64,000 nucleotides of DNA, taken from positions 65,507-129,506 of the IMG/VR virus record IMGVR_UViG_3300021256_000066; one strand, written 5' to 3'. The translations under genes were made by a program, and so were the position numbers. Below, piece after piece: positions 5,268 through 64,000 of this stretch (position 1 is the first letter of the stretch; each line of letters begins with the position of its first letter). Under the pieces are notes generated by a model. It did no database searches, was not told the DNA's origin, and was given only the letters and a program-made list of their open reading frames with translations. This DNA is from a virus. Lineage: Duplodnaviria; Caudoviricetes.

Positions 5268-6740
5268 ATGATTGCAAAAATTTATCCTGACGGGCACCCT
5301 GACTTGCAGGGAAAGAAAGACCCTACGCACCCAGTGCGCTATTTCGACATCCGAAAACTCACTCCACGCGAGTGCTATTCACTGATGGGCGTGCCGCCGC
5401 AGCAGATCGACACGCTGATGAAAACCGAAAAGAGACCATATATGGCATGGGTGGGCGTAGATGCCGAACTGGCTGTGTTTGGACTGGAGCCGAGTGCCAC
5501 GCGCCGCGAGGTGGATGAAGCATATCGCGAGGCTATCGAGAGCCTGAATAACCAGGCAGCTGACGATGCAGACGCACAGGAAGAAACCGACGAAGATACC
5601 GCACGGCTGATGGCAGAGAAGCCCGAAGACAATGCCGAGGAAACCGCGCTGATGCGACAGAACTACGAGATGAACTATCAGCGCATCATCGCTGCCAGTC
5701 AGGAGCAGCGTTACGGTGACGTGCAGATTATTGCCAACTCATCGCATTACAAGCTGGCGGGTAACTCCATCGTCTGCGACGTACTGATGTATATCTACGA
5801 GGAATTGCTCTACCCCACGTACCGCCGACTGCCGCAGGAGCAGACCGACCTATTCGCCCAGCCACAGTTCCGCTTGACCCGAGACTGGAAGAAAGAGCCG
5901 CTGAAGTTGGTAACACTTTGCAGCGGTTACGACAGTCAGGCAATCGCTATGGATATGCTGCAACAGCGATATCCGGACTTCCGATGGGAACTGAAGGCAT
6001 GGAGCGAGTTCGACCCCGAGAGCAGCCGACCATTGGAAGAGCAGCCCGCCATAGTGGCCCATAATCTGCTGTTCCCACAATACAAGGATTTGAACCGGGG
6101 CGACATGACCAAGGCTGATTGGAGCGACCTCGCCGATGCAGGTATCGACCTGCTGACATATAGCACTCCGTGTCAGTCCATCTCACAGGCTGGCAAGCGA
6201 GAGGGTATCAAGAAAGGTAGTGGCACTCGCAGTGCCGTACTTTGGAGTACCGAAGAAGCTGTTCGCCAGATGCGACCGAAGGTGCTGCTGCAGGAGAACG
6301 TGCGGGCGCTTATCAACAGCGTGAACATGCCCGACTTCAAGGAGTGGTGCAGTCTGCTGGAGAGCCACGGCTACGTGAACTTCCTCGCGCCCTCGTTCCC
6401 GACGGTCTGGGGCACCGACAAGCGCGACAAGAAGACCGTGCCGGGCATCCTGAACGCCAAGCACTACGGCGTGCCACAGAACCGCGAAAGGGTGTATATG
6501 GTCTCCGTGCGTGCCGACATGCTCGGCGGCACGCAGTACGAGTTTCCACGTCCTTTCCCGCTCGACAAGTGCATCGCCGACGTGCTGGAGGACAATGTGG
6601 ACGAGCGCTTCTTCCTAAAGCCCGACTCGGTGATCAAGTTCCTCACCGTCAACGAACAGACCGACGGCAGCGACATACACTATATGGTAACGGACCACAA
6701 ACTGAGTGATGAGGAAATCAGACGTGCAAGAGGTGAATAG
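5268..6740 (+). CDS. DNA (cytosine-5) methyltransferase catalytic core, circularly permuted (IX-X-I...VIII), no internal TRD
   Basis: IRKLTPRECYSLMG (IX) and KLAGNSIV (X) precede TLCSGYDSQ (I), YSTPCQSISQAG (IV), QENV (VI) and HYGVPQNRERVY (VIII). Confidence 0.92.
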   Translation: MIAKIYPDGHPDLQGKKDPTHPVRYFDIRKLTPRECYSLMGVPPQQIDTLMKTEKRPYMAWVGVDAELAVFGLEPSATRREVDEAYREAIESLNNQAADDADAQEETDEDTARLMAEKPEDNAEETALMRQNYEMNYQRIIAASQEQRYGDVQIIANSSHYKLAGNSIVCDVLMYIYEELLYPTYRRLPQEQTDLFAQPQFRLTRDWKKEPLKLVTLCSGYDSQAIAMDMLQQRYPDFRWELKAWSEFDPESSRPLEEQPAIVAHNLLFPQYKDLNRGDMTKADWSDLADAGIDLLTYSTPCQSISQAGKREGIKKGSGTRSAVLWSTEEAVRQMRPKVLLQENVRALINSVNMPDFKEWCSLLESHGYVNFLAPSFPTVWGTDKRDKKTVPGILNAKHYGVPQNRERVYMVSVRADMLGGTQYEFPRPFPLDKCIADVLEDNVDERFFLKPDSVIKFLTVNEQTDGSDIHYMVTDHKLSDEEIRRARGE

Positions 6741-6872
6741 GGGGGGCAAATCGGCGGTTGCTACTGGAAACAGAAGGACGGCTATGTGCGCCGTCCGCTC
6801 TGGGGACTGTCCCGCACGCTGAAAGGCGATGGCAATCATCCTGCAGGAATAATCATTGAGTATGAATTATGA
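6733..6872 (+). pseudogene. MTase TRD-like cassette 6; G7 tract (6740-6746) out of frame with GTG 6733, but body is in frame with the core across its TAG
   Basis: GGQIGGCYWKQKDGYVRRPLWGLSRTLKGDGNHPAGIIIEYEL. Confidence 0.62.
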
Positions 6873-7003
6873 AACAGACACCGAGAGCGTGCATCTACTA
6901 CAACTTGTCGCTGATGTATAACGACGGCATGAAGTGGGACTTGGTGGCCAAGACGGTCATCGGCGACACGCATCCACAAGCGCTATTGATAGAGTATGAG
7001 TAG
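6869..7003 (+). CDS. MTase TRD-like cassette 7 (44 aa; no homopolymer)
   Basis: MKQTPRACIYYNLSLMYNDGMKWDLVAKTVIGDTHPQALLIEYE. Confidence 0.65.
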   Translation: MKQTPRACIYYNLSLMYNDGMKWDLVAKTVIGDTHPQALLIEYE

Positions 7004-7196
7004 CATTACCCCCCCCATATTGCGGCAAGTCCCTGTTCGGCGAGTGCGGACGGAGTGGGCAAAAGCCGTCAGGCGGCAGACTGGTACCAACCCTTTTCAG
7101 GCCAAGCAACTGGAGGAGTTTGTGTCGGACTACATGCCTACCATCACCGCCAGCGCAAACATCGAGAACTATATCAAAGTAGAATATGAAATATAG
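6996..7196 (+). CDS. MTase TRD-like cassette 8 (C8 tract 7009-7016; in frame)
   Basis: ...RVRTEWAKAVRR...MPTITASANIENYIKVEYEI. Confidence 0.7.
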   Translation: MSSITPPILRQVPVRRVRTEWAKAVRRQTGTNPFQAKQLEEFVSDYMPTITASANIENYIKVEYEI

Positions 7197-7358
7197 AATA
7201 CAGACAACAAGCACCATGCCGATATACGAAGGCCACCTGGTAAAACCCGGATGGCACCACAAGGCTTGTGAGGTGCTGAATGTGGGGGGGTATCGACATG
7301 TATTCACACCCAGAGCAACAATCTGCTTCAAAAAATCATCATAGAGTATGAGTTATGA
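7186..7358 (+). pseudogene. MTase TRD-like cassette 9, frameshifted at G7 (7284-7290); G8 restores ...NVGGVSTCIHTQSNNLLQKIIIEYEL
   Basis: Manual translation; current frame stops at TAG 7342-7344 inside the junction motif. Confidence 0.68.
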
Positions 7359-8202: not shown

Positions 8203-8246
8203 TACAAAATATATACGAATATCTCAACAAACAAAACAAGAATCTT

Positions 8247-8570
8247 ATGAAACAGACATTTGAATTTGACGAAGAGCAGGTGCTGACGATTGTAACGGCA
8301 CTTGGAGTATTGAAAGACCGCATCGGTCAGAAAGGCAGCTGGTTGCAGCGCAAGCGAATGCCGACACTGCGCGGACGATTGGCCGACTGTATCACCATTG
8401 GTGACGAAACGGAGGCCGACGGGGTGCGCAAGGCTCTGGCTAAGGCGCAGAAGGATCACCAGAGCCGCATTACCCGAGGCGAGAAGATTGCCGAACTGAT
8501 GAACGATATCAAGCAGCAGGCGGGTGTGACCACCGAAAGACTGCGTGACTACGACATCGCGGAGGGCTGA
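8247..8570 (+). CDS. Hypothetical protein
   Basis: 107-aa ORF with AT-rich leader. Confidence 0.7.
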   Translation: MKQTFEFDEEQVLTIVTALGVLKDRIGQKGSWLQRKRMPTLRGRLADCITIGDETEADGVRKALAKAQKDHQSRITRGEKIAELMNDIKQQAGVTTERLRDYDIAEG

Positions 8571-8718
8571 CCGATGGCAGACCTCACTATCACTATCCCG
8601 AGCCAAGACCTCGGTGACTTCTATCGGATGTTGCGGGACTTCAGGCGAAATCGTGGCAACACGTTCGCCTACCTGCAAATCGAACTTGAACAGCGATACC
8701 CCAAACTGAAAGAGCGAT

Positions 8719-9099
8719 ATGGAACTGCATCTGAAGATTAACGACGTGGTGGGCATGGACGACGAGAAGCGCCACATACTGCGAGTGGACGAGGAAAGCC
8801 TGCGCACGGCACTGATGGCTCACCCAGGATGGCTGACGCAGAACGTGGTCAAGGACTGGCTCTTGAAGCACAACACCAGACTGCTGAACGAAATCATCGA
8901 CGACCCCACGCTGCGCAACAACATCTATATGGCCGAGAAAGCCAAGCGCGACGGCAAGGCCGAGCAGCGTGAGCGGCATCGGCTGTTTGAGATTGAGAAA
9001 AAGCGCAGGCACGACCAGTTCATCGCATCGCAGAACTATCGGCAGAGCGTAGATTACATTCACAACGTATTAGGATGGAACAATGACGAAACCGATTAA
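8719..9099 (+). CDS. Hypothetical protein
   Basis: 126-aa ORF. Confidence 0.7.
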   Translation: MELHLKINDVVGMDDEKRHILRVDEESLRTALMAHPGWLTQNVVKDWLLKHNTRLLNEIIDDPTLRNNIYMAEKAKRDGKAEQRERHRLFEIEKKRRHDQFIASQNYRQSVDYIHNVLGWNNDETD

Positions 9100-9125
9100 G
9101 GGGTCTAACCCCGTGACTATATAAT

Positions 9126-9947
9126 ATGCGAAACTACAAGGAACTATCAGAGGAGGAGGTGGAGCAGCTGGAGCGGCTCTACCCCGTGACACCGAACAGG
9201 CGGTTGAGCCAGATGTTTGGCGTGTCGGTGGATGCCATCAACGACCACTTCGCACGACCTCGCGGCTGGCAGAAAGACCAGTCGGCCATCAAGCACGCCA
9301 CGCACGGCACCTACCACGAGTTGACGGAGAAGGAGGAGCAGTGGATCGTGCGCCACTACCACAACACCCGCAACGGCGACATCCTGGCGAAGTACGGCAT
9401 CGGCGAGAGTCAGCTGCACAAGGTGCGCAGGAAGTACGGACTGAAGAAGAGCGACCGATTCATGCAGAAGACGCGGCGCGAGGCGGTGGCGCATAGTGTG
9501 ACGGCCTTCCGCGAGCACGGTGAGAGTGAACGGGCTGCGGAGCGGGCACGGCAGGCGTGGGCCGAGCGCAAGCGCAAGGGCGACTACGGCAACGTGGGCT
9601 TTAAGAAAGGAGAATCAAACAAAGACCGCATGTCGCCAAGGCGATACAAGCAGATGATGGAGAAGGCACGGCAGAAGCGCAACGAGACCATCCGTCGCGA
9701 CCGTGTGCGCATCCACTTCGGACTGGAGCCGAAGACGAAGCTGGTGAAGAACTGGGACGCCAACCGCGACTGGCGCAAGTGCCACTATCGGTATAAGTTC
9801 CGCGAGTTCGGCTACGACGTGGAGAAGGGCGGCAACGATATCTACTACTTCGCCGACACCGTGCGCCACCCCATCATGGAGCGCAACGCACAGCGGCATG
9901 GCATCAGGATTCTGCCTGCGGAGGAAGAGGAACAACGAATTGTCTAA
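9126..9947 (+). CDS. Basic protein with two HTH-like repeats
   Basis: LSEEEVEQLERLYPVTPNRRLSQMFGVS and LTEKEEQWIVRHYHNTRNGDILAKYGIG. Confidence 0.65.
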   Translation: MRNYKELSEEEVEQLERLYPVTPNRRLSQMFGVSVDAINDHFARPRGWQKDQSAIKHATHGTYHELTEKEEQWIVRHYHNTRNGDILAKYGIGESQLHKVRRKYGLKKSDRFMQKTRREAVAHSVTAFREHGESERAAERARQAWAERKRKGDYGNVGFKKGESNKDRMSPRRYKQMMEKARQKRNETIRRDRVRIHFGLEPKTKLVKNWDANRDWRKCHYRYKFREFGYDVEKGGNDIYYFADTVRHPIMERNAQRHGIRILPAEEEEQRIV

Positions 9948-9969: not shown

Positions 9970-10734
9970 ATGAAACAGAACGAGAGAGAGGGGCAGACTT
10001 TGCTACCGGAGAACTATCACTACTACAAGGTGCTGGCCGAATCAGCCACGGGCAAACGGCTGATGGCGCTGCTGCACGCCTGCAAGAAGTGCGAACAGGC
10101 CGCCGACGACTGGTGCAAGAAGTTCGGGGCGAAGTATTACTGCGACGATCCGAACTACTTTGCGGGGGGCGTGGCGTGCGTGGCTTTCGACGGCAAGCCC
10201 GACCCGAAGCTGTGGCGGGAATACACGACGGTGGAGGGTGAGCAGTATTACCTGCCGGCCTGCGAGGCGGTGGCCGACAGGGTGGAGATACCTCACAGGG
10301 ACTATGCTCTGCACGACACTTGGGACACGATGTATCTGCGCAACCAGATACGGGAGGTCACGGAGAAGGGCGACGACGGCACGGATGTGAAGCGGCTCTA
10401 CGTGGCACGGCTGTCGTTCCGGCCTGCTGGCAATCAGACAGACTCGCACGGAAGGCCTGTCCAGGCCGGACGGGCACTGCGGCGGGCTATCGGGGCCGAA
10501 CAGAAGCGGCTGCGCCTGCCGGTGGTGACAGTTCAGCAGGTCTATCAGGCCTTCGGGGCCGTGGTGCCCGACGGACGGCTCACTCCGCGCACACCCATCG
10601 TGTTCCTCTGGGGAGCATCCATCTACATCGGCTCTGCCTACCCCTGCGAGGCGAAGGGACTGACGGAGATCACGATGCAGCAGTGCCGCACCGCCGCCTG
10701 CAAGTTCGAGCGAGAGGACGGACGGGGGAGTTAG
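9970..10734 (+). CDS. Hypothetical protein
   Basis: 254-aa ORF converging on the integrase gene. Confidence 0.7.
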   Translation: MKQNEREGQTLLPENYHYYKVLAESATGKRLMALLHACKKCEQAADDWCKKFGAKYYCDDPNYFAGGVACVAFDGKPDPKLWREYTTVEGEQYYLPACEAVADRVEIPHRDYALHDTWDTMYLRNQIREVTEKGDDGTDVKRLYVARLSFRPAGNQTDSHGRPVQAGRALRRAIGAEQKRLRLPVVTVQQVYQAFGAVVPDGRLTPRTPIVFLWGASIYIGSAYPCEAKGLTEITMQQCRTAACKFEREDGRGS

Positions 10735-11927
10735 GTCTTGGCGGCAGCGTCGGTGTCGAACACGCGGTCGAGCAGACGGAAATTATTGTCGTTGATCACC
10801 GAGAAATCTTTCTGAATATAGATATCAGCCACGTCGTAACTGCCGACGTGGTTGAGTGCTTCATCGACATCGCCTTTCGAGAAGTGCATCAGGTTGCGCG
10901 AGAGCGTGGCGAAGGTATGCCGTGCCTGGTAGAACTGCAGGCCGTCGATTCCAACCGCCTCGCCGACGGTTTTCAGTCCGAGGTTCAGTGCCTTGTTGAA
11001 CGTCGATTCGTCGCGGTAGCGCTCGTGGAACGAGAAGACGCGACTGCTGCCCCGATAGCGCTTGATGAGCTTGGCGATGACGGGGTGGATGCGCACCTCG
11101 ATATAGGCATCGTCCTGACGGCGGTCGCGGGTCTTTATGCGGTTATACTTTAACACACCACCCGTCAGCGTCCGTGCCTCGTACATATCCACGGAGTTCA
11201 TACCCATCAGACAGAACGAAAGCACAAAGCAGTCGCGGGCCAGTTGCGGTCGGCTGTGCGCCTTGCCCTTGTAGCGATAGATGGCGAGCAACTGTTCCAG
11301 CGTGAGCGCACGGACACCCTTCTTCATCGGCTGTCGCGGCACACGGAAGCGCAGGAATGGGTCGTTCTGGATAGGCTGGTCGTAGTCGGTATTGTAGCGT
11401 CGCATGGCCTCGCGGTAGAGGTGGCGCATCTGTCCGAGGTAGAGCGACGCGGCACGGGGCTTGTCGTGCATCGTCTGCGCAAAGCTGTCGAGCAGGGGGT
11501 AGGTGATCTGCGCGAACGGCAGCGACCGCCGACCGAGGTGCTCCTCCAGTCGGTTCAGCATCGTGCGGTAGTTCTTGGCGCCCTTGATGTCGTGGCGCCG
11601 CAGCCATTCGTCGGTAAACGTGAAGAAGTCGAGCACCTGCTCTCCCTGTGTCAGTCGGGCGGCAATCTCCTGAGCGTCCATCGTCGCCGTGCCAAGCGAC
11701 TCCAGTTGCAGTGCGTCGAGCCGTTCCTGCAACTCGCGTCGCTTCTGTTCAATCATCTTCGCCTTCTCCGGCTCACGGATGCGCTTGCCGTTGGTAGTCA
11801 GTTCCGAGTCGGTGGCGGTGACACCCGTCGGGATGCGCTTCTTCGTCCGGCCTTCGCACACCAGGAACGACACCGGGTGCAGCCGTTTCTTATTCTTCTT
11901 GCCAATCTCAATCGTAATTGTTGCCAT
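10731..11927 (-). CDS. int: Tyrosine integrase (Bacteroidales type; arm-binding, SAM-like and catalytic domains)
   Basis: FCLMGMNSVD, YNRIKT, FYQARHTFATL, ALNH...ADIYI. Confidence 0.92.
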   Translation of the reverse strand: MATITIEIGKKNKKRLHPVSFLVCEGRTKKRIPTGVTATDSELTTNGKRIREPEKAKMIEQKRRELQERLDALQLESLGTATMDAQEIAARLTQGEQVLDFFTFTDEWLRRHDIKGAKNYRTMLNRLEEHLGRRSLPFAQITYPLLDSFAQTMHDKPRAASLYLGQMRHLYREAMRRYNTDYDQPIQNDPFLRFRVPRQPMKKGVRALTLEQLLAIYRYKGKAHSRPQLARDCFVLSFCLMGMNSVDMYEARTLTGGVLKYNRIKTRDRRQDDAYIEVRIHPVIAKLIKRYRGSSRVFSFHERYRDESTFNKALNLGLKTVGEAVGIDGLQFYQARHTFATLSRNLMHFSKGDVDEALNHVGSYDVADIYIQKDFSVINDNNFRLLDRVFDTDAAAKT

Positions 11928-12765: not shown

Positions 12766-12823
12766 AATAACTAAAATAAGTTAAATAATAACCTAAGTTG
12801 CGATGGATAATAATATTAATTCT

Positions 12824-12954
12824 TATCTTTGCAATCCGTAAGCAAGTAGTAAACTACGAACTAATCGGGCAAAAGAATAGCCGTTGACGCATAAAGTTCT
12901 AATCCACAAGACATTTGCGCCACTTTGCAATACCAAAATCCAAGCGCAAAGATA
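12824..12954. promoter_or_regulatory. Face-to-face Bacteroidetes -7 elements of the lysis/lysogeny switch
   Basis: TATCTTTG on + at 12824-12831 and on - at 12947-12954. Confidence 0.6.
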
Positions 12955-13005
12955 CGGCTTTCTTCCCGATTATTGTAAGATAGGTGTAAACTTTTTAATT
13001 AATTT

Positions 13006-13251
13006 ATGATTTGCGAAAAGGTAGGAAGAGCCGAATGGCAGAGTATGAAAGTGGGTGATGTCCGTATCTATACATTACCTGACGAGAAGGCAAAGGAAGC
13101 CGCACGGGTGGCCGCTCAGGCCGTGCAGAAGAACGACCGGTACGACTTCCAGCGTTTCTTCGAGCAGGATTTGCGACAGTTGTTGGGTGGTGATTTCGAT
13201 GCCGTGGTGCCGAACATGGACACGACCATCGCATTCAAACGTATCAGGTAG
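13006..13251 (+). CDS. Small early protein at the Cro position
   Basis: First rightward ORF after the switch. Confidence 0.6.
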   Translation: MICEKVGRAEWQSMKVGDVRIYTLPDEKAKEAARVAAQAVQKNDRYDFQRFFEQDLRQLLGGDFDAVVPNMDTTIAFKRIR

Positions 13252-13255
13252 GCGT

Positions 13256-13567
13256 ATGAACATCGAACTGAAAGACTTGTTGTCGCTGATGACCGATGCG
13301 GTGGATGCAGGCGTACAGAAGTACGTGCGCTCTTGTGACCCGCAGGCCGACTATATCAAGCAGGCCGAGGCAAAGCGCTACCTGCAGAAGCTGGGCTTCA
13401 AGGCGGCGATGCTGCAACGGTGGGTCGATGGCGGACTGCTCACCCCCGTGAAGACGAGTGACGCGCAGAATGCGTCGGTCATTTATTCGATGGCGGACAT
13501 CAAGGCGCTGGTCAGTTCGGTACGTCTGAAGACCCTTACCAACAAGTCGGACCACGACTATATATAA
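13256..13567 (+). CDS. Excisionase/MerR-like winged-helix protein
   Basis: YIKQAEAKRYL...MLQRWVDGGLLTPVK...VIYSMADI. Confidence 0.55.
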   Translation: MNIELKDLLSLMTDAVDAGVQKYVRSCDPQADYIKQAEAKRYLQKLGFKAAMLQRWVDGGLLTPVKTSDAQNASVIYSMADIKALVSSVRLKTLTNKSDHDYI

Positions 13568-13749
13568 AGGTAGGTATGATTGCCGATGGTCCTATCATCC
13601 ACTTTTCGCCCGCCGACGCGCCCGACCTGCCTGAGCTCCACAATCCGAAGGAGCTTCAGCCGAAGAAACGCGAGACACCAGGGCCGAAGGACTGGCAACC
13701 GATAGGCGACATCTGGTGAAAACAGAGAAACAATAATTCATCAATCGAT

Positions 13750-15441
13750 ATGGGAATAACAGTGTTAATTGTATTCGTACTTGCAATAGCAGGGGCAATC
13801 GTGTGGTTCTTCATCAAAAACAAGAAAGAGCCGAGTGTTCAACCGGAGAAGCCATCAGAGGCTGCCTCACAGCCTTCAGCGCCACCTGTGGATGACACAT
13901 CAGCGCAACAAGAACAGCCGAAGGAAGAACCGAAGGAAGAGGTAAAGGAAGAGCAGAAGCCAGTGGAGGAAGAGAAACCAGTGGTCTCCAAGCCAAAGCC
14001 TGATGACAAACCCAAGCCCATTCCCTTTGATGACAAACCAAAGTATGACGAGGAGTTTGAAGGCTACCTTGACAAGTATAGCCAATTTGCTAAGATAGAG
14101 AGGGATTCTTATACATATAGATACTTCTATGAGCTGTTCATAGAGGCAAAATCACAGTTGCGGATAGACACTTCTCATGGGTTGCCTATCCTTCTGAAAC
14201 AAGAAAACTTTCCCACTCTCTACGAATGGGGAGACGAAGGCGATCCAAAGAAAGCACAAGACTCTCTTATTGGCTGGCTATTCGCTCTGCAACTTGCAGA
14301 ACTGAAGCCCTATTACAGGGCAGACATCTTCAAGGTAGGCTATGAGATGGGTGGCTATGATAAGTATTCTAATATCTACGGCTATAAGTTTGAACTTGAC
14401 CCGAATGTTATGCGTATATTGGCTGGTGCGATCTACCCCGCAATGAAGGGTTTTTGCAAGCCAGTGACGGAGACTCTGAGAAGAGAGGTGGAAGGCTCAA
14501 AGTATAGCAAGACATTAGGTCAGCTATACACAGATGAGAAACGTGATAACGTGGCACCGAGTGGATTCTTTACTGACTTCCGTGTGTTCATGCCTACAGC
14601 ACCGGCTCCATACCTCTCCACATACAGCAAGAGAAGCGACAGGACTTATCCCAATGAGCCGAGGGATGAGTATGACAATCTCAAGATTGACCGCCAGATT
14701 CACGAAATGATAGTAGAGGCATACAACCTCAATCAGCCAGAGCACTACCAGGAGGTAGTGCAAGCCATAGCCGACAAGGAGGCTAAGAAAGAGCACCTGT
14801 TTGGTAAAAACGTTAATACAAAGCATTATCACTTCCACCCTGTATTCGGTGAGGACACGATTGGTGTTGAACTACCCTATGATGGTGTACTTGGTGACTT
14901 TGCATACCTATGCCTGCAGACCGGCAGCGCATCAAGGGGAATACTACAGAGTGCCACGATTACACCTCCGCAGTATGGCAGATTAAGACCTGGGTGTAGT
15001 TGGAGTCAAGAGGCAAAGAAAAACTCTAAAACTGACGACAGGAGGAATATCCTCACTAACTTTGAGATTGAGGATGGTGATGGATCACCAACAGGCTACT
15101 ATGACAAGAATGGTAACTGGGTATATATGAACGGGATTCATAATCCCGCAGAGTTTGAAGAGTACCAGAAGACACATCTATATGCCAACTCATATCCAAG
15201 TGGTCATTCAAGTGGTATGTTCTGCTGTTCAATGGTATTGATGGAACTGATGCCCAACAAGGCAGACCTTATTCTGAAAGCTGCCAACCAATATGCAGTG
15301 AATCGCACGATTGCCCGTTACCACTGGACATCGGACACTATCAACGGAAGGGTGCTTGGAAGTGCCACCAATGCAATATGCCATGCGGCGAGCGACTATT
15401 ACAAGATGCTGAAAACCATCGAGAAAGAGTTGTCGTGTTAA
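13750..15441 (+). CDS. Membrane-anchored PAP2/class A acid phosphatase-haloperoxidase superfamily protein
   Basis: N-terminal TM, P/E/K-rich linker, motifs YGRLRP, SYPSGH and RTIARYHWTSD. Confidence 0.82.
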   Translation: MGITVLIVFVLAIAGAIVWFFIKNKKEPSVQPEKPSEAASQPSAPPVDDTSAQQEQPKEEPKEEVKEEQKPVEEEKPVVSKPKPDDKPKPIPFDDKPKYDEEFEGYLDKYSQFAKIERDSYTYRYFYELFIEAKSQLRIDTSHGLPILLKQENFPTLYEWGDEGDPKKAQDSLIGWLFALQLAELKPYYRADIFKVGYEMGGYDKYSNIYGYKFELDPNVMRILAGAIYPAMKGFCKPVTETLRREVEGSKYSKTLGQLYTDEKRDNVAPSGFFTDFRVFMPTAPAPYLSTYSKRSDRTYPNEPRDEYDNLKIDRQIHEMIVEAYNLNQPEHYQEVVQAIADKEAKKEHLFGKNVNTKHYHFHPVFGEDTIGVELPYDGVLGDFAYLCLQTGSASRGILQSATITPPQYGRLRPGCSWSQEAKKNSKTDDRRNILTNFEIEDGDGSPTGYYDKNGNWVYMNGIHNPAEFEEYQKTHLYANSYPSGHSSGMFCCSMVLMELMPNKADLILKAANQYAVNRTIARYHWTSDTINGRVLGSATNAICHAASDYYKMLKTIEKELSC

Positions 15442-15821
15442 AACGAGGTGATGATGACGGAGCGCATGGTAATGATAGCGATAGAACTGTTTGCCATGCT
15501 GGCAGCAGTGTCGCTCTTTTGGAACAAACCCGACAAACAATAATGAAACCCCGTTGCAGACCAGCCGCCGACGCTGCGGGGAATAATGTATAAAACTATA
15601 AAACTTATGAAACCGATTATGAACAAAGAGACAAAGACAACGGAGCCAGACCGAAGGGGACCGTCGATGACCGACGAGTCGCCGACACCGAGTATCTGGT
15701 ACAGCTGAGTCGCGTCCGACCAACGATTCTGACTCCAGCCCCGCCGTCATCCCATTCTTGATGCTACGGCAGCCTACCACAGACGGCGGGGCATTTTCAA
15801 ACATTCAAAAGAAAAGGCGAT

Positions 15822-58662: not shown

Positions 58663-61600
58663 ATGACGGAAGCCAAGCCACAGAACTACTGGATCAGTCC
58701 GACCGCACTGAAGATTACGCTCAATGCGCTGTCGGATGCCGACTATATGCAGGCCAGTGCTGCCAGCGGGGCGATGATTATGTGCTATATGCGCGGCATC
58801 GACGGACTGGAGTACGACCACGGCCACAACTACAAGCGCTGGCCGCTGAAGATATCGCCGACCTACTTCACCACGACCACGAGGAAGTATGTGTATATCC
58901 GCATACCGAAGCCCGCCGCCGACTTGGCCGATGTGGACGCCGACACGGCACTGGTGGTCTATCCCTCTGAGCGCGTCGATATCTACGGCATGACCGAGGA
59001 CGGACGGCAGCTGCTCGACGCATCCTTTTATTATATATACACGCAAGGTATCATCTCCGCGTCGGAGCCCACCGCCGAGGGACTGCGCCGCCGATGGGAA
59101 CAGGACATCGTGACCGGCACGCTGGCCAGCGACGAGGCCACCGAGGGGGGCGGCACGGGCGAGTGGTGGCGCTACGACCCCATCACCGACATGGTGACGT
59201 TCCTGAAGACCATCGCCTCGGCTACCTTCGAGTATCTGAAGGCCGCACAGGCCGAGATACACCACCTGAATGTGACGGGTATCTTCGATGCCGTAAAGGG
59301 CTATATCGACGACCTCAGAAGCCACAACTACCAGTCGGGACTGCTCGACGGCAGTGGTTTCCGTCTGACCAACGACAACGGCGAGGGCGCCTCGGAGCTG
59401 GAGGTGGACTTGCTGAAGGTGAGGAAGAAGGCCACGTTCATGGAGCTTGAGATCCGCGAGGAGACGTTCGTCGGCGGCAACCAGCACTACTCGCCTGCCG
59501 GTTCGACCATCTACCGCGTGGAGTATATGGATGAGAACGATCAAGCCATCGGCTATACCGTGATGAAGGTGCCCTTCCTGCTGAAGCGGTTCGCCTTCCT
59601 TGGCAGGATGTTTAACTATGCCGCCCGCAAGCGCATCCGTCGCCAGCTGTCATCCGAAGAGTGGCGGCAGGTACACCATTTCCGCTGCTACCTGCTCGCC
59701 GACGATGGCACCACAGCCACCCGCAACTGGTGGAAGGTGGGCGACCAGCCGCGCTGTCAGACCTTCAACAAGGCGGTATCGGCACAGAACAAGCGCGACA
59801 ACCTGTATAACTGGAAGCGCGACCATACGGGCGACGACCCTTCGACGCCGATGCCCGACTACACCACCATCGAGGGACCGTTTGAGACCGCATACTACTG
59901 GCGCCTGTGCTCGAATGTCGGCAGCGAGAAGCTCGACGATGGGCATGCCTACGACTTCATCGACATGCCATACGAGGGGTGGCCGGGCTACTCGGAGACC
60001 GACAAGCGCTCTTTCCGTGATGCAGGCTCCGGCATTCCCGTGGCGGGCGACACCATCGTCTGCATGGGCAACCGCACCGACCCGGAGCGTATGAACATGA
60101 TTTCGCTCTATACCAGCGGCAACGACAACAACCCGCCTGCCATCAAGGGCTACCGGGGCATTCACACGTTCAAGATTAATCCCGAGAACAAGGTGTTCGA
60201 GATCTCGCCAAACGAGTTTCTCGTCCGTTCTCGCATGTTCAAGCTGCTCGATGACTCAGACTATGAGTTCCCCGTGCCTCTCGAACGTGGCGAGTGGCAG
60301 CAGGGTGTGCGCTACCACTGGTATGACCGCGTGTCGTGGAAAGGCTCTATCTGGCTCTGTCAAGTACTCGATGACTATCTGTGGGAGGATGCCGCCGGCA
60401 ACAACTACGAGGGAAGCAGCGTCACGGACATCGAATACGGTGAGGGCGAGTTTGAGTATGCCACTGGCAAGACCGACCACTACTACCGCACAGGCCGCGT
60501 GAACGGCACTCAGGTGTATTACATCAGATATTATACCACCTCGGAGCCCGACCGCAACAACGAGCTGTGGCTGCGCGAGGTCAGCAAGGGCACCGAGATC
60601 GTGAGCAGCGAGATACACTATGCTGCCTCGCTCGACGGCGTGAACCATCCAGATGACGAGGACACGGGCGGCATCGACCCGTCAACGGTCGTCGTGCCCG
60701 ACGCGATGAAGTCGCAGACCACGGCGCTGTTGTCATCGTTTGCCCAGGCACTGGCTCCGACGGCGGTGCCAGTCGCGGGTTCGGCCACCCACGAGTACCT
60801 GTCGAAGCTCTACTACGAGGCACGGAGCCAGTATTACGACGGCACGTCTCCCTACGGACTGCCGCTGCTGTTCAGAAAAGAACTCTTCCCGTCGCTGACG
60901 GACTACTACGGTACGGACAGCAACCCCGACGGTGCCTTCAGCGCACTGGCAGGCGTACTCTTCGCGATGGTGCTCTGTGAGCTCCGTCCCGACCTGCACA
61001 ATGCCGTATGGAAGGCCGGCTACAACCTCGGCGGCGACAAGACGACGTTCATCTACAAGTATCGGTTTGAGAGCGACCAGAATATCGCCCGCATGGTGGG
61101 CTCAGTCCTGTGGGCTGCGATGCGTGGCATCATACAACCAGACACCAAGACCATGCAGCGCGAACTTGGCGGCAGCGACCTCGGAATCACCATCCGTGAG
61201 GTCTCTGACCGTCCGTTCGCCGATTACAAGGACACTTATTACATCGACCTGACGCAGTTCATGCCAACGGCACCAGGCCCGTACCTGACAGGCTACACCG
61301 ACCGCAGCAGCATCGGCGGTGTGCCCTACGACGCCTACGACCTGGCCGACCACAACCTTCAGCAGGACCTCGACATCTACAATCTCGTGGTGAGCGACTA
61401 CAACCTCGGTGGCTCGCACCATCAGGAGGTCGTGCAGGCGATTGCCGACAAGGAGATGGCGATGGCCCACCTCTTCGGCAGGAACCGCAGCCAGAACGGC
61501 TACTCGTTCCACCCTGTCTTCGGCACCGACACCATCGGCAAGGAGATTTCCGACAGCGGTGCGACGGCCTCGTTCGTGTCCGACATCGCCAGCATCGGTC

Positions 61601-64000
61601 GCGGCCTGCGCCGCCCGCTTCAGCTCGGTGCCTACTACGGTCGTCGCCGCCCGGGACAGTCGGAGACCGACGGCGTGTCGAAGAGCGGCGCGGCGGGCGT
61701 GCTGATGGACATGACCATCGACAACATCGACGGCAGTCCGTCTGGTTACGGCCGCGAGGGCGACTACAATACCCATGAGGCCAACAGCGTCCCTGCCAAC
61801 TCCTATCCGAGCGGTCACTCAAGTGGCATCTGGGCCGTAGCGCTGATGCTCATAGAGGCGATGCCGCAGAAGGCCGCACTCATCATGAAGGCCGCCAACA
61901 CCTACGCCATGAACCGTCAGATAACGCGCTATCACTGGAACTCCGACACCATTCTCGGACGTGTGGCCGGTGCTACCATCGCCCCGATGATGCGTGCGTC
62001 GTCAGACTGGCCCGTGCTCTTCGCCGCCGCCAAGGCCGAACTCGCCCAGGGCAGCGGCAGTGCGTGGAAGACCACCATTGAAGAGACGGGTATCTCGATG
62101 GGTAAGTATCTCTGGACGCGCACCACCATCCACTACGACGATCCGAACGACCCCGACCGTGAGCCGACACGCGAGTACAGTGTCGCCCGTTGGGGAATCG
62201 ACGGCGACGGCATTGCCGAGATCGACTCGCTCTATCTGGCCACGTCGAACGCGGCGCTGGTCATCGACACGCAGGCCGACACCTATCCGAAGCCGGGCGA
62301 CGCAGGCTGGGAACAGGCTGGAAGCCAAGCCAAGTGGTATGCCACCTTCGGCGATGCGGCTGCTGCCAACGGCGGCGTCGGCGCAATGCAAGGCTGGAAC
62401 GTATGGGAGAAGACCATCATCAAATACGATGCCTACAACACGGACGGCACCAAGAAGACCGTGCCCGACCTCGTAAACTACCGCTGCTCGCGCATCGGGC
62501 AGGACGGACAGATCGGCGAGGAGGAATACTATATGCTGGCCGAGAGCGACGACTTTGCCACCGTGTTCGGCTCGCTGACGCCCGCCTACAGCAGGATAGG
62601 CATCCGCTGGTATAATCAGTCGAACCCTGCCGCAGAGCGCTGGCGTCTCAGCGACACCACGCCGAACATTAACACCCAGATGTGGAGTGCCGTCATGCCT
62701 ACCTATAATAAAGACGTACATGGCAAGAAAGTCTATCTCTGGAACTTCGAGCAGTGTGTCGATGGCACGGGCACGGAGTATGCCACGCGGCCCGTCTGTA
62801 TCGGCAACCATGCCCGTGGCATCAAGGGAGTCATCGAGCTCTATGCCCTGTCGGCAAGCCAGACACCCGTCAGCGCCGAGCGCCCCATCCCTGCCGACAT
62901 CAACGCGAAGAACCAGTGGGGCGTCATCCCGACCAGCGGTTTCAGCGACCCGCAGGTGTGGGGCGACGAGAAGTACGACCGTGCCCCGACCGAGGCGCTG
63001 CCCTATCAGTGGAACTGGACGCGCACGCTCTACTCGTCGAAGGATGCAGAGGGCAAGGACTACGAGGACCACTACCACGTCAGTGCCGTGCGCGGCACCC
63101 GTGGCGAGGACGGTGCAGGCATCGAGTTCATCTACTGCCGTCCGCAGTCGCACAATGCCGACGGCACGCCTATCGCCGTGACCGTGCCAGACCCGAACGT
63201 GAAGAAGGACGCTGGCGGCACCGCCCGCACAGCGGAATACATCAAGACCCACGACGACTTCGTGCCATACCAGTGGACCGACAACCCCGTCGGCATCGAC
63301 TTCCTGCACCAAGTGGAGTACCGTGCCGAGCGCAAGTCGTCGGCAGTCAGTGGCACGGGCGGATTCACCGGTGGTCACGAGTGGGGACTTTTCTCTGCTG
63401 CTGCCGTACACTCGAAGTGGGGCAAGAACGGTCAGGACGGCGACGGCGTGGAGTATGTCTATATCCGCACGGCCACGAAGAGCGCCCCGACCATCACCAA
63501 TTCGAGCGACACCTACGGCGGCAAGACCTACCTCGACGACGACTACCTGCCGCTCAGCAGCGCAGGCCGATGCACCGACGATCCTGTCGGCACCAGCCAC
63601 GACCTGCCCTATGAGTGGGTCTGCAAGCGCACCAAGGCCGCCCCGAATGCCGAGACGGGTGCCCGTCAGTGGGAGAAATATTCTGGCGCAATGGCGCTGT
63701 GGGCGAATTTTTCCGAGAGCATCACGAAGAAGAGCGAGAGCTACCGCTATGCGACGAACAACACCGGCACAAGGCCTGCGGCATCGTCATCCGACTGGAA
63801 GACCACGAAGCCGACGCTGCAGAAAGGCTACTGGCTCTACACCGAGACTACCATCACCTGGAGCGACAACTCGACCACCGTGCTTTACACCGACGAGCGC
63901 AACCCGAACGACGGTGTGGCCGGTCAGGATATCATCGTTGATGGCTCGACAGAGATGAAGTACTACGTGGGCGACTCGAACACGTCGCACCCTGCCGAGT
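58663..64000 (+). CDS. Giant tail fibre/host-specificity protein (>1779 aa, 3'-truncated) with an embedded PAP2 phosphatase domain
   Basis: No stop seen from ATG 58663 to the window end, hence absent from the ORF track; ELEVDLLKVRKKATFMELEI, GKYLWTRTTIHY / GYWLYTETTITW repeats, GxDG collagen-like joints; PAP2 motifs at ~61636-61947. Confidence 0.85.
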   Translation, partial: MTEAKPQNYWISPTALKITLNALSDADYMQASAASGAMIMCYMRGIDGLEYDHGHNYKRWPLKISPTYFTTTTRKYVYIRIPKPAADLADVDADTALVVYPSERVDIYGMTEDGRQLLDASFYYIYTQGIISASEPTAEGLRRRWEQDIVTGTLASDEATEGGGTGEWWRYDPITDMVTFLKTIASATFEYLKAAQAEIHHLNVTGIFDAVKGYIDDLRSHNYQSGLLDGSGFRLTNDNGEGASELEVDLLKVRKKATFMELEIREETFVGGNQHYSPAGSTIYRVEYMDENDQAIGYTVMKVPFLLKRFAFLGRMFNYAARKRIRRQLSSEEWRQVHHFRCYLLADDGTTATRNWWKVGDQPRCQTFNKAVSAQNKRDNLYNWKRDHTGDDPSTPMPDYTTIEGPFETAYYWRLCSNVGSEKLDDGHAYDFIDMPYEGWPGYSETDKRSFRDAGSGIPVAGDTIVCMGNRTDPERMNMISLYTSGNDNNPPAIKGYRGIHTFKINPENKVFEISPNEFLVRSRMFKLLDDSDYEFPVPLERGEWQQGVRYHWYDRVSWKGSIWLCQVLDDYLWEDAAGNNYEGSSVTDIEYGEGEFEYATGKTDHYYRTGRVNGTQVYYIRYYTTSEPDRNNELWLREVSKGTEIVSSEIHYAASLDGVNHPDDEDTGGIDPSTVVVPDAMKSQTTALLSSFAQALAPTAVPVAGSATHEYLSKLYYEARSQYYDGTSPYGLPLLFRKELFPSLTDYYGTDSNPDGAFSALAGVLFAMVLCELRPDLHNAVWKAGYNLGGDKTTFIYKYRFESDQNIARMVGSVLWAAMRGIIQPDTKTMQRELGGSDLGITIREVSDRPFADYKDTYYIDLTQFMPTAPGPYLTGYTDRSSIGGVPYDAYDLADHNLQQDLDIYNLVVSDYNLGGSHHQEVVQAIADKEMAMAHLFGRNRSQNGYSFHPVFGTDTIGKEISDSGATASFVSDIASIGRGLRRPLQLGAYYGRRRPGQSETDGVSKSGAAGVLMDMTIDNIDGSPSGYGREGDYNTHEANSVPANSYPSGHSSGIWAVALMLIEAMPQKAALIMKAANTYAMNRQITRYHWNSDTILGRVAGATIAPMMRASSDWPVLFAAAKAELAQGSGSAWKTTIEETGISMGKYLWTRTTIHYDDPNDPDREPTREYSVARWGIDGDGIAEIDSLYLATSNAALVIDTQADTYPKPGDAGWEQAGSQAKWYATFGDAAAANGGVGAMQGWNVWEKTIIKYDAYNTDGTKKTVPDLVNYRCSRIGQDGQIGEEEYYMLAESDDFATVFGSLTPAYSRIGIRWYNQSNPAAERWRLSDTTPNINTQMWSAVMPTYNKDVHGKKVYLWNFEQCVDGTGTEYATRPVCIGNHARGIKGVIELYALSASQTPVSAERPIPADINAKNQWGVIPTSGFSDPQVWGDEKYDRAPTEALPYQWNWTRTLYSSKDAEGKDYEDHYHVSAVRGTRGEDGAGIEFIYCRPQSHNADGTPIAVTVPDPNVKKDAGGTARTAEYIKTHDDFVPYQWTDNPVGIDFLHQVEYRAERKSSAVSGTGGFTGGHEWGLFSAAAVHSKWGKNGQDGDGVEYVYIRTATKSAPTITNSSDTYGGKTYLDDDYLPLSSAGRCTDDPVGTSHDLPYEWVCKRTKAAPNAETGARQWEKYSGAMALWANFSESITKKSESYRYATNNTGTRPAASSSDWKTTKPTLQKGYWLYTETTITWSDNSTTVLYTDERNPNDGVAGQDIIVDGSTEMKYYVGDSNTSHPAE

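Follow-up and report, generated by a model that had tools for sequence, protein, structure and literature searches.

The 64,000-nucleotide stretch of phage DNA analysed here (the window) is the final 64 kb of the 129,506-bp IMG/VR record IMGVR_UViG_3300021256_000066 (Duplodnaviria; Caudoviricetes), hereafter G000. It carries a gene for a 563-aa protein, P0002 (Table 1), which we read as a phosphatase that is made early, is tethered to the membrane and acts on a phosphorylated substrate of the envelope or on the precursor of that substrate; the activity is predicted, and we give this reading a probability of about 0.4. The host of the phage is a rumen Prevotella, since a metagenome-assembled genome (MAG) of Prevotellaceae carries a 91% identical copy of the phosphatase gene and every cellular relative of the protein is from Prevotella. 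P0002 consists of an N-terminal anchor, a flexible linker and a 460-aa PAP2 module, a second copy of which is built into a giant tail-fibre-like protein of the same phage.

Fold, anchoring and predicted expression of the putative phosphatase

In Pfam, both copies of the module match PAP2 only (39.3 bits against a cut-off of 27.2 for the free copy), and for the free protein PHROGs gave no family match and the viral structures in BFVD no significant match. The AlphaFold model of residues 100-563 has a mean predicted local distance difference test score (pLDDT) of 92.9 and a predicted TM-score (pTM) of 0.93. Model residues 156-464 superimpose on the class A acid phosphatase PhoN (2a96) with Z 18.3 and a root-mean-square deviation of 2.4 A over 208 of 217 residues, followed by 8yc1 (Z 17.2) and 9htz (Z 16.5), with a Foldseek probability of 1.00. 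The class A acid phosphatase family profile is matched at sequence level with an E-value of 8e-21. PgpB and LpxE are also among the fold matches (Z 9.3-9.4), as are vanadium haloperoxidase chains (Z 6.3-9.4). When the first 150 module residues were modelled alone (pLDDT 95), class A acid phosphatases took the first four places among the PDB matches (Z 9.7-8.5), and PAP2-superfamily chains account for 11 of the 13 top structure matches of this N-terminal bundle. The module is likely a tandem PAP2 arrangement, in which a degenerate bundle packs on an intact class A bundle, with Z-scores of 9.7-8.5 being reachable by helical arrangement alone.

The active site of the C-terminal bundle is well conserved. 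Across an alignment of 69 sequences (P0002 numbering), Y409, R411, R413, S484-G485-H486, R519, H525 and D529 are invariant and P414 is nearly so. Motif 2 (PSGH) is present as P483-S484-G485-H486, with its acid/base His, and motif 3 (S-R-x5-H-x3-D) as N518-R519-TIARY-H525-WTS-D529, the first Ser being replaced by Asn. His525 is the predicted nucleophile, and Asp529, Arg519, His486 of PSGH and Arg413-Pro414 are retained with it; this catalytic set is complete in both the free and the tail copy. The Lys of motif 1 (K-x6-R-P) is absent: position -7 is occupied by Pro in the free copy and by Gly in the tail copy, with no conserved Lys nearby. The missing Lys is one that binds vanadate in haloperoxidases.

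The module thus shares the fold, PSGH, R-x5-H-x3-D and the RP of motif 1 with class A acid phosphatases, such as Salmonella PhoN (2a96), the Shigella/Morganella PhoC-type enzymes (8yc1, 9qcj) and the Escherichia blattae enzyme (1d2t). However, the class A enzymes are secreted by means of a signal peptide, have a size of about 25 kDa, form homo-oligomers and possess the motif-1 Lys, whereas the phage module has 460 aa, an extra degenerate bundle and inserts of about 100 aa, lacks a signal peptide in its free form, and is either tethered by a helix with reversed charge bias or built into a tail fibre.

The N-terminal transmembrane segment and Pro/Glu stalk noted in the preliminary description of this DNA were recovered, as helix 3-22, the KNKK cluster and a linker reaching to about residue 100. 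The tail preceding the helix is very short and uncharged, a feature that recurs among relatives: Lys and Arg are absent ahead of the helix in 98 of 106 anchored homologues, the 15 residues after it hold a mean of 3.9, and 102 of the 106 carry more after the helix than before. Two-helix variants have K-rich N-termini, which again would leave the C-terminus inside. Furthermore, no cleavable signal peptide or lipobox was found among about 150 phage forms; exported proteins encoded beside one homologue (locus L011) start with MKK signal peptides. Because of the positive-inside rule, the charge bias makes it likely that the N-tail lies outside and that the linker and enzyme lie on the cytoplasmic face of the inner membrane. 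The same pattern speaks against the earlier proposal that the protein acts on the surface receptor itself. A comparable layout, with an uncharged N-tail, a helix, a basic cluster, a linker or coiled coil and a C-terminal domain, is found in the bitopic N-out/C-in proteins ZipA of E. coli and p16.7 of phage phi29, the latter also being an early phage protein. There is no sequence relationship, and the C-terminal domains of ZipA and p16.7 bind FtsZ or DNA and are not enzymes, unlike the phosphatase module.

The gene lies beside the lysogeny switch, as had been proposed: in G000 an integrase and a repressor are followed by three small rightward genes and then by the phosphatase gene. A sigma-70 promoter and terminator scan was set aside as uninformative for a Bacteroidota host, and the TAnnTTTG box, a single consensus motif with 23 occurrences on both strands of the 64 kb, was used instead. 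Two identical boxes facing each other in the 240-nt switch region that separates the repressor from orf81 suggest overlapping divergent promoters of a lysis-lysogeny switch. No box on the (+) strand was found in 13006-13750, the 745 nt upstream of the phosphatase gene. Since, moreover, the gaps between the three small genes and the phosphatase gene are only 4, 9 and 29 nt, the latter looks like the fourth and last gene of an early rightward operon diverging from the repressor. Its expression is predicted to begin with the lytic programme (at infection or induction) and not to come from the repressed prophage. The operon position and the lack of a box of its own therefore argue against a moron expressed in the lysogen. 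In a syntenic relative (L003), genes for 81, 103 and 47 aa stand in the same order ahead of the homologue, and in another phage (G001) the phosphatase gene closes a run of early genes that includes NinB and SSB. No (+) terminator was predicted after the phosphatase stop by a scan that is poorly suited to a Bacteroidota host.

As a separate observation, the heptamer AGGTAGG occurs at 13016-13022, 13246-13252 and 13569-13575, that is, 1-3 nt before the orf103 and orf47 starts and once inside the orf81 start; it is absent before the phosphatase gene.

Relatives of the module and the tail-fibre copy

Homologue searches retrieved more than 240 proteins of 309-986 aa and a further 39 of 987-2815 aa, all named hypothetical in every source. 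A scan of 1.84 billion cluster representatives gave 129 clusters at 50% identity with E-values up to 1e-30. The family is found in rumen and gut Prevotella phages of 48 kb to 442 kb, and its 460-aa module is always whole, being C-terminal in the short proteins and variably placed in the long ones. Full-text literature searches returned no report of a PAP2 acid-phosphatase module in tail fibres or tethered to the membrane in phages; the family is without description in the literature searched, the kind of enzyme itself being known.

Three deployments can be distinguished. Nearly all short phage forms are anchored like P0002: behind a few residues without charge come a single helix, a cluster of K/R and then 40-250 aa of low-complexity linker, of the PE/PK, PT/PD or EAKAK type. 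In the longer anchored homologues Pfam finds PAP2 and Big_2 only, which gives no domain clue to location. Cysteine content was considered as a marker of compartment (medians of 5-6 in anchored and 2 in fused forms) and dropped, as the exported host lipoproteins, with 5-7, match the anchored forms. In the second deployment, the module is fused into at least 30 long fibre-like proteins, some of which also have tail-collar, Big_2 or S74 chaperone domains and therefore fit with tail fibres. Glycan depolymerases, esterases and muralytic enzymes make up most of the phage tail enzymes described to date. The third form is cellular: proteins of 505-530 aa with the whole module (41-45% identity) are encoded by three cultured rumen strains, Prevotella sp. 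ne3005, aff. ruminicola Tc2-24 and sp. khp7, and by several MAGs. They start with lipoprotein signal peptides followed by acidic residues, and their loci in Prevotella isolates (L041:4860-6398, L043:4887-6398 and L049) have a housekeeping context, with genes for DnaK, a glutamate symporter, a lactate permease and a D-Ala-D-Ala carboxypeptidase. The host form is rare, occurring in 2 of 101 sampled genomes of the genus, and its clade (support 100) is nested among phage forms, suggesting that the chromosomal lipoproteins were captured from phages.

The free and tail copies of G000 are clearly homologous. BLASTP aligned residues 120-562 of the free protein with residues 707-1128 of the tail open reading frame (ORF) at 40% identity over 453 columns (E 1e-93), and every one of the shared blocks listed earlier (FMPTAP.PYL, QEVVQAIADKE..HLFG, FHPVFG.DTIG, ANSYPSGHSSG and KAAN.YA.NR.I.RYHW.SDTI.GRV) is found in this alignment. 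The two copies are, however, not each other's closest relatives. In FastTree and IQ-TREE phylogenies, one clade (Shimodaira-Hasegawa (SH) support 90-97) unites the anchored forms with the host lipoproteins and six fused forms and contains the free copy, whereas the tail module falls in a separate clade of 11-17 members, all of them fused (support 100). The nearest relative of the free copy is the free form of another phage, 92% identical. Because of these different clades and of this nearest relative, the two copies are best regarded as old paralogues from different deep clades that were acquired separately. A recent duplication within the genome is ruled out by the 40% identity, the different clades and the difference in GC content at third codon positions (GC3; 0.50 versus 0.82).

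The family profile was run on 18 viral records that contain the module, and the general PAP2 model on 12 of these as well. Of the records with a completeness of at least 92%, G001, G002, G007, G012 and G018 have a single anchored copy only; a fused copy alone is present in G009, which is complete, and in one partial record. Two copies are found in G000, G005 and G006. In the jumbo phage G005 (L064:1492-6736), the anchored phosphatase is the middle one of three adjacent co-directional genes, with a baseplate-like gene nearby; the products of the flanking genes share a small N-terminal module (MANWIIDP.. and MKWSIEPSDG..), and a divergent PAP2 module is present in one of them. The second copy of G006, 548 aa long, has no anchor. 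Thus, the matched pair envisaged in the preliminary description is not supported as an obligatory one, as the copies largely occur independently. Pairs do recur in two unrelated lineages (G000 and the 412-kb jumbo phages), which for so rare a module is suggestive, but two events are too few for statistics. A looser functional link between the anchored and the other deployments may still exist.

The free gene also differs from its surroundings in composition. Its GC content is 0.462 (GC3 0.50), compared with 0.52-0.60 (GC3 about 0.65) in neighbouring genes and 0.62 (GC3 0.82) in the tail module, so that the AT-richness remarked on earlier is real and moderate; GC is as low in about 11% of equal-sized windows of the record. 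In G001 and G002, the phosphatase gene, at about 80% identity, is the only gene in common with the window when 6 kb on each side are compared, and neither the tail protein nor its two upstream neighbours were found there. Moreover, the GC content of the gene stays at 0.44-0.46 in backbones of GC 0.35-0.57. The gene thus appears to be a foreign-looking, mobile accessory cassette. Its earlier description as moron-like holds for the foreign composition and the single-gene cassette behaviour seen in G001 and G002; expression in the lysogen is not supported, given a start 29 nt behind early genes and no -7 box of its own.

Possible functions

In the reading we prefer, P0002 would be an accessory enzyme that moves from phage to phage and is produced once the lytic programme begins. 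Tethered at the cytoplasmic face, it would strip a terminal phosphate from a membrane-proximal envelope substrate, for which a lipid-linked glycan, a lipid A or lipopolysaccharide (LPS) precursor and undecaprenyl phosphate species are candidates, and its relatives carried on fibres would work on the mature structure from the cell exterior. Erasing the phosphate at its source during infection would alter the newly made surface, and this might hinder late-arriving phages or keep progeny off debris. The same module works extracellularly in tail fibres and in a few Prevotella lipoproteins, which makes a phosphate mark on the Prevotella envelope the probable target. Intracellular phage enzymes of another superfamily, acting on lipid head groups, have been proposed to limit superinfection via lipid-linked precursors (PMC12419801), which is a parallel idea and not evidence for the present one. 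Should the substrate indeed be an envelope lipid or glycan that carries phosphate, the family would point to a so far unrecognised determinant of phage reception in Prevotella, a dominant rumen and gut genus for which, to our knowledge, very few receptors are known.

Several points weigh against an early enzyme facing the cytoplasm. All characterised PAP2 active sites of which we are aware face away from the cytoplasm, so that the orientation proposed here, if true, would be without precedent for a PAP2 active site. Both the fibre form and the lipoprotein form lie outside the cytoplasm, and parsimony would favour a periplasmic anchored form. TonB spans the periplasm with a spacer similar to the Pro/Glu/Lys linker, and the charge bias is absent from a distant subgroup (L029, L030, L033), in which MK, the helix and a K are followed by an acidic run. 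Fibre-like genes, not early genes, surround the anchored gene of G005, and the promoter calls depend on one consensus motif. Finally, with the motif-1 Lys missing, the chemistry may differ from that of PhoN-type enzymes.

A broader and unlikely extension of the preferred reading would make a single phosphate mark a contested receptor switch, with one module put to three uses: in the tail fibre, on an inner-face tether and in a rare, probably phage-derived host surface lipoprotein. If so, phages would alter the mark on the outer surface in order to infect and would block its supply within the cell, and the enzyme would have been taken over by some hosts for erasing the mark themselves.

Among the alternatives, soluble phosphate or nucleotide metabolism survives best, although it too seems unlikely. 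P0002 would then be a membrane-tethered, non-specific phosphatase breaking down nucleotides or other soluble phosphoesters soon after infection, for which the pre-early 5'-deoxynucleotidase of T5 offers a comparison, or, if facing the periplasm, a phosphate scavenger supporting the synthesis of a 129-kb genome. Indeed, among solved structures the nearest folds belong to class A acid phosphatases of broad specificity, the gene is grouped with early or DNA-metabolism genes in G000 and G001 (where co-transcription is predicted), and very large phages (412-442 kb) commonly carry it. However, the tether and long linker are kept in more than 100 homologues, indicating a membrane-proximal target, and a module in tail fibres cannot serve metabolism. 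Scavenging, in addition, seems needless in rumen fluid, which is rich in phosphate.

The original proposal is distinctly improbable on the present data. Spelled out as a model, it makes the gene a moron expressed in the lysogen, with a product exposed to the periplasm or surface that would destroy or mask the phosphorylated receptor engaged by the tail, for superinfection exclusion or progeny release. Tail enzymes with a cell-borne counterpart are known, as with the T4 gp5 lysozyme and Spackle, or the P22-like tailspike and the O-antigen-modifying Gtr/Oac enzymes, where the same envelope structure is acted on from the virion and inside the cell. The resemblance is an analogy only, since the partner there is an inhibitor or a different enzyme, whereas the two parts in G000 are homologous enzymes whose coupling is not obligatory. 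The full catalytic set in both copies, the foreign composition and cassette behaviour, the second, non-anchored copy that accompanies the anchored one in the unrelated G005/G006 lineage, and a TonB-like linker that would suit a periplasm-spanning protein all speak for such a pair. Against it stand six records with the anchored form alone, namely the five listed above and, if its second, divergent copy is set aside, the 100% complete G005, as well as G009 with the fibre form alone, the absence of the tail protein and its neighbours from G001 and G002, the deep separation of two copies only 40% identical when the free one is 92% identical to free forms of other phages, the lack of a detectable promoter for the gene, and a charge bias that predicts a cytoplasmic domain.

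Slimmer still are the prospects of an effector against cell-wall precursors, which would dephosphorylate undecaprenyl (pyro)phosphate or lipid II-type carriers and throttle peptidoglycan or capsule synthesis for host takeover or lysis. The PAP2 enzymes PgpB, LpxE and BcrC do act on undecaprenyl pyrophosphate (PMC7413402, PMC6581854), two of them are among our fold matches, and membrane tethering would suit such a function. These integral-membrane lipid phosphatases, together with LpxF, belong to the same superfamily, share the catalytic triad and act at the membrane on envelope lipids, whereas the phage protein is a soluble-type domain on a flexible linker from a single helix, and its fold is much nearer to the soluble class A enzymes (Z 18). 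Furthermore, a lysis effector made early would be a risk to the phage, the gene has no linkage to lysis genes in G000, and a fibre-borne copy fits poorly.

The two-bundle vanadium chloroperoxidase-type proteins (1idq, 4usz and NapH3, 8cxl) resemble the module in their tandem bundles, PAP2 geometry and an active site confined to the C-terminal bundle, but they are weaker structural matches (Z 6.7-9.4), and the Lys with which they bind vanadate and activate peroxide is missing from the phage module, in which nothing specific to haloperoxidases was found. That the module is a decoy or lectin binding phosphate, or an enzyme like the vanadate-dependent haloperoxidases, is very hard to credit: the absent motif-1 Lys, the two-bundle layout with haloperoxidase chains at Z 6-9 and the VCPO_2nd tag given to some viral relatives in the Atlas would favour it, but the His nucleophile, Asp, both Arg and PSGH are invariant in free, fused and host forms, which speaks for catalysis, class A phosphatases match much better (Z 18 versus at most 9.4), and haloperoxidases depend on the Lys that is missing.

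Genome, neighbouring genes and feature coordinates

Table 1. Positions in the window of the phosphatase gene, its parts, the switch region and the tail-fibre copy
Feature	Position	Strand	Basis or remarks
Free phosphatase gene (P0002), 563 aa	13750-15441	+	open ORF; more than 240 homologues of similar length
Transmembrane helix (residues 3-22), then KNKK cluster (23-26)	13756-13827	+	read from sequence
Pro/Glu/Lys-rich linker, residues 27-99 (~75 aa)	13828-14046	+	read from sequence
N-terminal helical bundle of module, residues 100-254, degenerate PAP2-like, without catalytic residues	14047-14511	+	AlphaFold2 (AF2) pLDDT 95; PDB matches
Predicted catalytic class A acid-phosphatase bundle, residues 255-563 (R411/R413-P414, P483-S-G-H486, R519, H525, D529)	14512-15438	+	AF2 pLDDT 92.9; PhoN 2a96 Z 18.3; PDB sequence matches
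Switch region with two facing Bacteroidota-type -7 boxes TATCTTTG, at 12824 (+) and 12954 (-)	12766-13005		motif scan
Three small early genes: orf81 (13006-13251), orf103 (13256-13567), orf47 (13577-13720)	13006-13720	+	gaps of 4, 9 and 29 nt
Integrase	10731-11927	-	
Repressor-like gene, 169 aa	12256-12765	-	PHROG transcriptional repressor, E 1.3e-5; transcribed away from the phosphatase operon
Giant tail-fibre-like gene, running off the window across the record junction; full product P0135, 2612 aa	58663-63999	+	PHROG virion structural protein, E 8e-7
Tail copy of the 460-aa module, tail residues 683-1128	60709-62046	+	hmmsearch envelope; BLASTP; Pfam PAP2

The ends of the G000 record overlap (204-459 matches 129251-129506 with three mismatches), and the tail gene contains 888-nt tandem repeats. 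Because of this overlap and these repeats, the G000 map is circular, with the tail gene spanning the record junction and continuing at the record start, although IMG/VR labels the record as linear. The 129.5-kb record being a dimer of a 65-kb genome is ruled out, since the overlap is limited to the ends. Downstream of the tail gene (L066:6204-9684, in G000 positions and outside the window) lies a reverse transcriptase at 8611-9684 (phrog_1423, E 4e-66), and a pair of 83-nt repeats is present at 7084-7166 and 8231-8313, the first repeat lying at the 3' end of the ORF 6204-7271. Reverse transcriptase and repeat pair probably constitute a diversity-generating retroelement. A head protease is also encoded downstream of the giant tail gene. 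Given the reverse transcriptase and the head protease nearby, this gene can be placed in a host-recognition and structural region.

No tRNA was found at the integrase end. Upstream of the integrase, the syntenic relative encodes a ParA-family protein and a protein faintly matching Rep3_C (L003:1-2968); the Rep-like gene also occurs in the window, at 1506-2947, and hints at plasmid-like maintenance alongside integration. On the other side, a small convergent ORF with a hydrophobic stretch (15438-15626, - strand) overlaps the phosphatase stop. Its counterpart in L003 (11683-11940, -) is called as an 85-aa gene with an ATG, a start codon that the window does not have.

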